Assembly: GCA_943349675.1 (NCBI GenBank)
Contig: CALQZN010000001.1
Coordinates: forward strand, 1-57,962
Length of the DNA stretch: 57,962 bases
Origin: Candidatus Nomurabacteria bacterium
GTDB taxonomy: Bacteria > Patescibacteriota > Minisyncoccia > Phycocordibacterales > SBAW01
Direction of reading: 5' to 3'
The notes under the pieces: model-generated
Told to the model about the DNA's origin: nothing
What the model saw: only the letters and a program-made list of their open reading frames with translations
Database searches by the model: none
Part shown: positions 47,961-48,489 of the stretch, one piece after another
Layout of the letters: each line of letters starts with the position of its first letter
How positions within the stretch are numbered: the first letter of the stretch is position 1
Translations under genes and position numbers: made by a program

Positions 47961-47994
47961 GTTTATATAGTTTTGAGTTTATTTCACGTCCACC

Positions 47995-48060
47995 CACACA
48001 TGCTTTTCTGCTGAAAAGTTGCGCGGGCCCGCCTCGGCTCGTCAGCCTCCGGCCGGTGGA
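47995..48060 (-). repeat. structured repeat family B, copy B2
   Basis: The copy contains CACACAT, the hairpin CTTTTC-tgct-GAAAAG, the core GCGCGGGCCCGCCTCGG, the hairpin GGCT-cgtc-AGCC, and the tail CTCCGGCC. Confidence 0.8.
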
Positions 48061-48066
48061 CGTTTC

Positions 48067-48489
48067 TTACTTCACGTCCACCCCCATGCTTCGAGCAGAG
48101 CCAGCGATTATTTTCATCGCACTCTCTACATCGTTTGCATTTAGATCTACCATCTTTTGCTCTGCAATTGCGCGGAGCTGATCTTTAGACAGTGTGCCGA
48201 TTTTTGCAGTGTTTGGTTTGCCCGAGCCCTTCTCTTTGCCAAGCGCCTTCATGATAAGGCCCGAGGCTGGAGGAGTCTTGAGGATAAAGTCGTACGAGCG
48301 GTCTTCGTAAATGGTTATCTCACAAGGGATGAGGTTACCTATCATTGGCTGGGTAGCCTCGTTAAACCTCTTAACGAATTCGCCAATGTTGATGCCAGCA
48401 GGACCAAGCGTAGTACCAAGTGGAGGCGCAGGCGTAGCCTTGCCCGCTGGGGCTATAATCTTTATTTTTTTAGTGATTTTTTTTGCCAT
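48067..48489 (-). CDS. rplK: 50S ribosomal protein L11
   Basis: The sequence KIIAPAGKATPAPPLGTTLGPAGINIGEFVKRFN is L11-like. Confidence 0.95.
   Translation of the reverse strand: MAKKITKKIKIIAPAGKATPAPPLGTTLGPAGINIGEFVKRFNEATQPMIGNLIPCEITIYEDRSYDFILKTPPASGLIMKALGKEKGSGKPNTAKIGTLSKDQLRAIAEQKMVDLNANDVESAMKIIAGSARSMGVDVK

Follow-up and report, generated by a model that had tools for sequence, protein, structure and literature searches.

The element described here lies directly after the stop codon of rplK, the gene of ribosomal protein L11, on a contig of a Candidatus Nomurabacteria bacterium (GenBank assembly GCA_943349675.1, contig CALQZN010000001.1), whose 57,962 nucleotides are referred to as a whole as the window. 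The initial annotation of this DNA had listed the element as one copy of a repeat "family B", set between the rplK gene end and a second, downstream copy of that gene end. rplK itself is an intact open reading frame (ORF) at 48067-48489 on the minus strand, encoding 140 amino acids that end in ...SMGVDVK*. Homologues of L11 carry PF03946 and PF00298 and conserve the C-terminal SMGVDVK; the closest relatives of the window's protein are from Patescibacteria/Paceibacterota. The folA gene, on the plus strand, ends at 47929, and a bidirectional intrinsic terminator at 47929-47964 is common to the two genes. This is the shared terminator that had been recognized beyond the element, and its downstream position places the element within the rplK transcription unit.

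The repeated gene end is a 17-nt direct repeat with one mismatch and a spacing of 88 nt, reading (plus strand) TTATTTCACGTCCACCC at 47979-47995 and TTACTTCACGTCCACCC at 48067-48083. The second of these, the proximal copy A (sense strand GGGTGGACGTGAAGTAA), comprises the functional last five codons of rplK with part of a Gly codon and the stop. The first is the distal copy A' (sense strand GGGTGGACGTGAAATAA), which differs by a G-to-A change at a third codon position. The certain extent of the duplicated block is 15 nt (GTG GAC GTG AAG TAA); the two preceding G residues belong either to the element or to the target. Repeats of this kind are rare by chance: when the whole window is scanned for pairs of direct repeats that are 17 nt or longer, lie 30-150 nt apart and contain no more than one mismatch, three loci are returned, as against a mean of 0.03 in shuffled windows. 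The three are the rplK flank (47979, distance 88), the flank of rplL (6210, distance 90) and a coding tandem repeat at 51623. (The last lies among five 21-nt tandem repeats at 51602-51731, inside an ORF at 51490-52005 on the minus strand, which encode (D/E)IEEIQED-like heptads.)

Between the two gene ends are a GAAA spacer with an inverted copy X' of the gene end (48055-48066, sense CGTCCACC) and a 59-nt core (47996-48054, minus strand). The core reads GGCCGGAGG-hairpin 1-CGAGGCGGGCCCGCG-hairpin 2-CATGTGT in the sense direction (in full, GGCCGGAGGCTGACGAGCCGAGGCGGGCCCGCGCAACTTTTCAGCAGAAAAGCATGTGT), with P2 and hairpin 1 at ~48031-48053 and hairpin 2 at ~47993-48027. The complete sense-strand order is accordingly ATG GGG GTG GAC GTG AAG TAA, GAAA, CGTCCACC, core, GGGTGGACGTGAAATAA, a 15-nt spacer, terminator. 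GGTGGACG at 48055-48062 is the reverse complement of CGTCCACC at 48075-48082, and in the sense strand X' pairs with the gene end GGTGGACG so that the stop codon is held in a hairpin loop. The hairpin over the stop that the initial annotation had proposed is thus present in the minimum free energy (MFE) fold of RNAfold, as a 9-bp stem; that GGTGGACG is a fixed end of the element does not hold, since this segment is target-specific and differs with each host gene. The MFE of the sense strand is -50.8 kcal/mol (z = -4.2), that of the antisense strand -36.9, the sense strand folding better because of its G-U pairs.

The suggestion that the repeat extends to ~25 nt once a 2-nt indel is allowed (acacatgctt and ccatgctt) has to be given up: the added nucleotides belong to the element and are not duplicated. 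CATGTGTG forms the conserved 3' end of hairpin 2, and every copy has it, as ...(T)ATGTGTGAC or ...CTTGTGAC; when empty and filled sites are compared, the duplicated block comes out at 15-17 nt.

Empty and filled alleles within a species

A 99% identical variant of the window's L11 (P0003) is encoded on 24 contigs. At two loci, L001 and L002, the site is empty: GGGTGGACGTGAAGTAA is followed by ATTTTAAAATAAAC and the terminator, and folA lies 45 nt after rplK. Two others, L003 and L004, are filled, their extra 88 nt consisting of GAAA, CGTCCACC, the core and a perfect 17/17 repeat between flanks almost identical to those of the empty alleles. A metagenomic locus, L135, is the same as L003 at this site. 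The terminator is the same in both kinds of allele, and the comparison bears out the order of gene stop, element, second gene-end copy and original terminator that had been read from the window. The window's own sequence is a third rplK allele, with the G-to-A change in its distal copy and a diverged spacer before the terminator. The distal copy had been called decayed; this is appropriate for the window allele and not for L003, L004 and L135, in which the repeat is perfect.

A sister copy follows the rplL stop codon (6226-6311, minus strand; 82.5 bits with the covariance model introduced below), and its geometry is alike, as the initial annotation had pointed out: the flanking 26-nt repeats, at 6211-6236 and 6301-6326, are identical at 25 of 26 positions. 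Three rplL alleles exist in the same species with an identical L12 protein. The allele without the 90-nt block is found in L208, and seven other contigs with identical L12 carry the element. The filled allele with the 26-nt repeat is that of five contigs and the window. In the remaining allele (L209 and L212) the distal copy is AAAGTTGAGTTGAAATAA, with three synonymous-type changes, and the downstream flank AACCTTGAT is repeated in inverted form, as ATCAAGGTT, at the right junction. Empty sites in relatives, which had been suggested as the thing to look for, are thus found at both genes. Since empty and filled alleles accompany host proteins that are 99-100% identical, the difference is an insertion/deletion polymorphism, and the element has been gained and/or lost precisely within the species.

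L001 and L002 differ from the filled L003 by another strain-level indel: they contain a bAvd and RVT_1 gene pair of the diversity-generating-retroelement type (17783-19212, between a DUF2914 gene and argS), which L003 is missing. A connection of the element with this pair was considered and dropped, the pair being 8 kb away and in the strains whose rplK site is empty.

Structure, spread and targets of the family

A scan of one genome per species with the pattern GAGGCGGGGTCGCG-N18-34-TGTGAC yields at least 120 loci in Paceibacteria, Saccharibacteria, Berkelbacteria, WWE3, Falkowbacteria, other Patescibacteria and Elusimicrobia; a covariance model has 116 matches in 100 of these loci (among the matches listed). 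The family is widespread in Patescibacteria, extends to Elusimicrobia and is, apparently, undescribed. Four full copies are found by the model in the window, all on the minus strand. Besides the copies at rplK (47982-48067, 78.4 bits, E = 1e-19) and rplL, there is one directly 3' of tRNA-Leu (tRNA 55144-55226; copy 55045-55132, 72.4 bits), which is also in L001 and L002, and one 3' of tRNA-Arg (tRNA 56816-56889; copy 56672-56761, 77.3 bits). The closing stem of the tRNA-Arg copy, GAGGAATCG/CGATTCCTC, matches the T-arm of that tRNA, and the 3' half of a further copy comes after it, at 56620-56664. The only candidate on the plus strand is a weak, partial match (20.5 bits) at the contig end, 57897-57962, with a family-B-like hairpin 1 and hairpin 2 (GCGCGGCGGCGC ... 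CAAATTTTTAGCAAAAAATTATGCG) and a different junction sequence.

Read on the sense strand of the host gene, the constant core of ~60 nt consists of RGCCGGA, hairpin 1, GAGGCGGGGUCGCG, hairpin 2 and UGUGAC, and forms a three-way junction. To its 5' side are a spacer of 0-5 nt and an inverted copy, 8-16 nt long, of the last bases of the host gene; to its 3' side is a direct copy of the gene's last 15-26 nt. All of this surrounding sequence is derived from the target. The inverted copy pairs with the gene end, so that a stop codon or a tRNA 3' end comes to lie in a hairpin. The presence of the gene end on both sides of the element leaves the host gene intact. In many loci (L053, L068, L107, L109 and L110 among them) the spacer holds an extra hairpin with the loop (A)ACUGCU(U), for example GCAAGCAAACTGCTTTGCTTGC, which resembles an optional module on the element's 5' side.

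The fold is upheld by covariation. In an alignment of 43 sequences, paired cells amount to 85.6%, compared with 65.6% in shuffles, and the covariation score is 0.533, compared with 0.167 (none of 500 shuffles reaches 0.533, and slid partners score 0.08-0.14). Hairpin 2, in which 11 of the 15 pairs show compensatory changes, is 98% paired. (The search pattern fixed 20 bases, and the invariance of GUCGCG/UGUGAC and of two G-U pairs is in part a matter of construction; in copies found by the model only, the second G-U varies to G-C, A-U or C-G, and the first stays.) Rfam 15, which includes self-cleaving ribozymes and group I and II introns, gives only rRNA and tRNA when the window is scanned at gathering thresholds, and only terminator-driven noise in E-value scans of three copies. 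Full-text literature searches, conserved 12-mers included, brought up nothing relevant to the element. Among 2.9 million viral contigs there is a single occurrence of the core pattern, and a phage origin was rejected.

Copies can be dense, with five matches on the 5.8-kb contig of L015 (L011 is also cited as dense or tandem). Head-to-tail units of a tRNA end and an element are found in L021, L030 and L120, and these resemble small arrays in which the gene end acts as the "repeat".

The preferred neighbor is a tRNA gene: 64 of 109 copies (59%, among the matches listed) are 45-160 nt 3' of a tRNA on the same strand, tRNA density at the loci being ~1 per 5 kb. The typical tRNA repeat runs from C56 of the T-loop to position 73 and 1-3 nt beyond (~17-24 nt); some repeats start at the acceptor stem. 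Protein-coding targets are rplL (four lineages: the window, L059, L099 and L118), rplK, an FtsZ-like gene (L031) and others, and here the repeat ends exactly at the stop codon. The inverted copy reaches further 5' than the direct copy, by 2 nt in rplL (window and L059) and L011 and by 1 nt in the rplK lineage. The orientation is always that of the host gene's sense strand, and the element is carried within highly expressed transcripts (those of tRNAs, rplL and rplK), in their 3' untranslated part and ahead of their terminators. Tabulation of flank duplications, which had been proposed as a check, shows a repeat score of at least 11 in ~45 of 114 copies from other genomes (among the matches listed); the similarity of the flanks is reproduced at other copies and in orthologous loci.

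At tRNA-linked copies the upstream tRNA is intact in all cases (67/67), and there the spare end is dispensable. The spare tRNA end is decayed in 22 of the 67, in some at the universal A58; in the other 45, removal of the block still gives a valid tRNA. Element removal in silico reveals no hidden split tRNA in the 42 copies outside this group of 67.

In the window, three of four tRNA genes (one by what appears to be a sister family) and two ribosomal-protein genes are occupied. The apparent sister is at tRNA-His (53916-53988, minus strand), whose last 19 nt, GAGTCCCATCGGTCACCCA, are repeated ~190 nt downstream (region 53712-53933) around a different insert of ~170 nt that starts with TGGGAATCGAACGGGACCCGAGC. 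It looks like a second family with the same gene-end-duplicating signature, which would make family B part of a larger group. A gene for SmpB is within 8 kb of the element in seven loci (neighborhoods L008-L128), and the neighboring gene of transfer-messenger RNA, with its tRNA-like 3' end, may also be a target.

The rplK-linked lineage across hosts

Metagenomes were scanned for an rplK end followed within 30 nt by GCCGGA. This gave 67 loci, 39 of them distinct and passing a stricter element pattern, in hosts whose L11 is 53-80% identical to that of the window over the C-terminal 90 amino acids. In 30 of the 39 lineages X' is a perfect complement of nine bases of its own gene end (N-GTN-GAN-NT; mean 8.4/9). 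Matched to the gene ends of other lineages it scores a mean of 6.5/9, with 2% perfect. The length of X' is 9 nt in 22 lineages and up to 16 nt elsewhere, and L130, L149 and L177 have full-length inverted copies with almost no loop.

The cores tell a different story from the genes to which they are attached. For 56 lineage pairs with cores 93-100% identical, identity over the final 250 nt of rplK is typically ~60% (range 22-83%); the correlation between core and gene identity is weak (rho = 0.27). The window core is 97% identical to that of L138, the L11 of which is 78% identical. The cores of L186 and L190 are 100% identical, and their X' segments differ at exactly the two positions at which the genes differ. 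Neither gene-end copy is co-inherited with the core, and no block of raised identity is found upstream, which argues against homing by recombination, in which the 3' part of the gene would be co-converted along with the element. The distribution is patchy: the site is empty in each of seven L11 lineages with 76-98% amino acid identity to the window, and filled and empty lineages are interleaved in the L11 tree.

Near-identical cores in hosts that share only 60-80% identity in their rplK DNA, patchy occupancy and polymorphism within a species together indicate horizontal spread of a target-dedicated element lineage, with frequent gain and loss. The behavior of X' indicates that it is set by the local target and does not travel with the core. 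Element lineages are dedicated to particular targets, and the rplK-linked one is present in ~40 diverged hosts.

The same data bear on a quite different proposal, that core, stop-codon hairpin and second gene end constitute a 3'-end RNA module beneficial to the host (for stabilization, processing or regulation), mainly inherited vertically and lost occasionally by slippage, what looks like mobility being a secondary effect. The strong covariation would be expected of such a module, conservation of the core exceeds that of synonymous sites in the adjoining gene, and the tracking of the gene end by X', the invariable sense orientation and the location upstream of the terminator also fit; so does the fact that some core sub-variants follow host kinship (L155/L165, L130/L149, L141/L180). 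The distribution does not: the seven empty relatives and the species polymorphic at both rplK and rplL make occupancy patchy, the core shared with L138 and the weak correlation of core with gene are at odds with vertical descent, and tandem arrays and half copies exist. Moreover, stems vary freely between families, so that conservation of every nucleotide in the rplK lineage is hard to credit to function. We regard the RNA module as unlikely.

Mobilization, the distal gene end and known systems

We think it probable, with moderate confidence, that the family consists of protein-less, ORF-less, strand-specific mobile elements that duplicate a gene end and are moved in trans. The mobilizing enzyme would be a putative and probably host-encoded one, and the intermediate would be the sense strand in single-stranded form, either RNA or single-stranded DNA. 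One way in which the junctions might be made is as follows. The free 3' end of the gene-end strand would fold back and be extended on itself as far as a branch point, which would generate the inverted copy X'; the extended end would then be joined to the core, the three-way junction bringing the ends of the core together, and the direct copy would correspond to the overlap of the two joints. Loss could occur by slippage or recombination between the direct repeats, with help from the hairpins. The specific fold-back scheme, which is drawn from junction anatomy only, is offered tentatively. Fold-back extension would leave just such full-length, loop-poor inverted copies as are seen in L130, L149 and L177. 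No non-encoded CCA is found on proximal tRNA copies (beyond position 73, proximal and distal copies continue with identical genomic sequence for 1-3 nt), and there is consequently no evidence for mature tRNA as the junction partner.

Several observations weigh against mobility in trans as just set out, or against its details. No mobilizing enzyme was found: all-against-all clustering of 896 ORFs from 121 loci produces housekeeping clusters only, with no transposase, integrase, reverse transcriptase or HUH gene, nor any other gene, recurrent near the copies. An integrase or HUH enzyme tracking the element, which had been suggested as something to look for, is thus not among its neighbors. The intermediate of the fold-back scheme (RNA, complementary DNA or circle) is a postulated one. 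The "empty" rplL allele of L208 already holds an inverted segment, GCAACTTT; it looks like an excision footprint of the allele with the 26-nt repeat rather than a virgin site, or, alternatively, its hairpin is native and the 26-nt repeat a plain duplication. At no individual locus is it established whether the element was gained or lost. Many rplK lineages have the spacer GNAA in common, which one would not expect of junctions formed afresh with every insertion, and the G-U pairs of hairpin 2 owe part of their constancy to the search pattern.

A further difficulty comes from the distal copy, which was compared with its own gene end in 30 rplK lineages that have it at a fixed offset. A neutral relic should accumulate about equal differences at non-third and third positions. 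Of the 87 differences found, 82 fall at third, 3 at first and 2 at second codon positions, and 27 of 30 distal copies still read V-D/E-V-K-stop. Their similarity to their own gene end (11.7/15) is close to that to the gene ends of other lineages (11.3/15). The sequence just downstream of the distal copy is unalignable between lineages. Distal copies at rplL show the same tendency, keeping E-L-K-stop through synonymous changes that include CTC to TTG. The rplK distal copy, then, departs from what is expected of a relic.

Three readings of this coding-like conservation are conceivable. The spare end may be put to use after excision or processing of the element at the level of DNA or RNA. It may instead be a targeting segment by which an rplK-dedicated lineage would home into rplK of distant Patescibacteria, under selection to fit the invariant positions of rplK ends and partly converted by its recipients. 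Or filled alleles may recombine with each other within the conserved core. A distal copy that is a working part, whether as targeting segment or as used gene end, would explain its conservation. The element might then be a new kind of mobile RNA or DNA, guided by or exchanging the last codons of its host gene, run by host enzymes only and bearing a hairpin written by fold-back, with the distal copy as its working part. We consider this possible and rather doubtful.

Coding-like distal ends are also what one would predict of an intron-like or bypassed element, in which the block is removed from RNA (by a ribozyme, or by an endonuclease and a ligase) or passed over by the ribosome, so that in some transcripts the real gene end would be the distal copy. 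The preserved reading of the rplK and rplL distal copies, a compact core whose 5' and 3' ends are adjacent, and the valid tRNAs that result from block removal at 45 of 67 tRNA-linked copies can all be cited for it. Nevertheless, no case is obligate. Every upstream tRNA is intact, none is recovered solely by taking the block out, and rplK and rplL are complete ORFs, so that an obligatory intron is excluded; the decayed distal tRNA ends and the failure of Rfam to match any ribozyme or intron family add to the case. The ~60-nt core is below the size of self-splicing introns, none of which, to our knowledge, is that small. Translation into the distal copy by read-through or frameshifting is excluded by a stop in the intervening frame and by a stop-to-stop spacing that is not constant modulo 3. 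Programmed translational bypassing, as in T4 gene 60 or mitochondrial byp, would call for matching in-frame take-off and landing codons and for a product that requires the downstream segment. The element does have a hairpin containing a stop codon and a distal copy that resembles coding sequence; TGG or TGA, and not Gly, precedes that copy, and the protein is complete without a bypass. Removal or skipping of the block is, in our estimation, very improbable.

A further proposal takes the gene-end repeat as the att core of a miniature site-specific integrative element, on which a host tyrosine recombinase (Xer- or integron-like) would act in the folded single strand, with gene-end copies swapped between element and chromosome and both thereby kept fit for coding. 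A distal copy that periodically becomes the gene end would be codon-like for that reason. Repeats that extend from the T-loop of a tRNA to its 3' end are like classical att cores; gene end, spacer and inverted copy resemble a recombinase core site with 9-bp arms and a ~9-nt spacer; and presence or absence is precise. That the element brings no enzyme is familiar from Xer-dependent elements (CTX phage, IMEX), which encode none. The arms, however, are wholly different among rplK, rplL and each tRNA, and one sequence-specific recombinase cannot recognize them all. The inverted segment fits the synonymous variants of its lineage with the core unchanged (L186 and L190 again), the core is co-inherited with neither gene-end copy, no recombinase gene recurs nearby, and a double-stranded circle of ~90 bp would be sterically unlikely. 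Site-specific integration of this type is accordingly improbable. What the mobile element moved in trans probably does have in common with Xer-dependent elements of the CTX phage type and with integron attC sites, by analogy, is the use of folded single strands and borrowed enzymes, and attC sites too are found right after stop codons. It differs in that its targets are not dif or attI, that it has no R/L box consensus and that the gene end is duplicated.

Other known systems were compared in the same way. Miniature inverted-repeat transposable elements (MITEs), REP/REPIN, Correia, RUP, ERIC and Rickettsia palindromic elements are likewise short, ORF-less, multi-copy, structured, intergenic or at gene ends, mobilized in trans and polymorphic between strains. 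Unlike them, the present element has no terminal inverted repeats, makes a target duplication of 15-26 nt (not one of 2-10) with a target-specific inverted copy, has a fixed orientation to its host gene and keeps the same core across a superphylum. A MITE is rejected specifically because RGCCGGA... and ...TGTGAC, at the two ends of the core, do not form an inverted repeat (all inverted sequence comes from the target and changes from site to site) and because repeats of a variable 12-26 nt replace a short, fixed duplication of 2-10 bp. REP/REPIN sequences, which depend on RAYT, are 20-40-nt palindromes with a conserved 5' tetranucleotide and no duplication; a ~60-nt three-way junction with direct repeats is not one of these. 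A PATE derived from IS200/IS605, or a TnpB omega-RNA end, which would have subterminal hairpins and insert 3' of a fixed tetra- or pentanucleotide without duplication, is excluded by left junctions without a common motif (TAA|, TAG|, GCAC|, CCA|) and by the presence of a duplication; Rfam gives no match to IS605-orfB or HEARO motifs.

Islands and prophages integrated at tRNA genes by tyrosine integrases have a direct repeat from the T-loop to the tRNA 3' end and keep the gene functional, and the direct repeat of a gene 3' end by which such islands are recognized does flank the element. The differences are an insert of ~70-130 nt with no integrase or ORF, near-identical cores at many unrelated targets where islands pair one integrase with one att sequence, and the use of stop codons as targets; a tyrosine-integrase island is rejected, there being no integrase inside the 71-130-nt insert and none clustered in the 121 loci. 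Casposons make target duplications of 14-15 nt and CRISPR integration duplicates a full repeat, with a preference for the 3' ends of a tRNA or translation-factor gene. These Cas1-type reactions resemble the present case in their long duplications and tRNA-3'-end preference; they are set apart from it by the element's lack of terminal inverted repeats, its variable duplication of 12-26 nt and its inverted target copy. Casposon-type insertion is rejected on the first two of these points and on the lack of any cas1-like cluster near the copies, in a search confined to their neighborhoods. In a diversity-generating retroelement, template and variable repeats are ~100 nt long and template adenines are changed, as against repeats of 15-26 nt with differences that are not adenine-specific; this too is rejected. 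The mobile hairpins of organelles (yeast mitochondrial GC clusters, double-hairpin elements, "byp") are similarly tiny, GC-rich and two-hairpinned, and they spare the genes of the AT-rich genomes in which they reside. They belong to another host domain, the likeness is one of description, and we know of no gene-end duplication or target-matched inverted copy in them.

The element is filed as a small non-autonomous mobile element, and there is a sizeable chance that its mechanism is of a new kind. Its signature is unusual, in that a long duplication ending at a functional gene end is combined with a target-matched inverted copy. This fits the chemistry of no transposase, integrase or retroelement with which it was compared, which would imply an unrecognized route of mobilization, in which host enzymes may do the work. 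Patescibacteria, with their tiny genomes, are generally portrayed as containing little mobile DNA. The practical consequences for them are strain-level indels at core marker genes (rplK, rplL, tRNAs) and added stop-codon hairpins, and gene callers can be misled: one database entry for the window's L11 has 152 amino acids instead of 140.

Two further features of the window deserve mention. A 66-nt repeat is present in three copies (10655-10720, 12774-12839 and 35799-35864), with inverted ends TTATCCACA...TGTGGATAA (DnaA-box-like 9-mers) and a central palindrome; it is probably the "family A" of the initial annotation. The 23S rRNA match at 716-4009 (minus strand) is 3294 nt long, compared with a model of 2925 positions, which implies ~370 nt of insertions in the gene.

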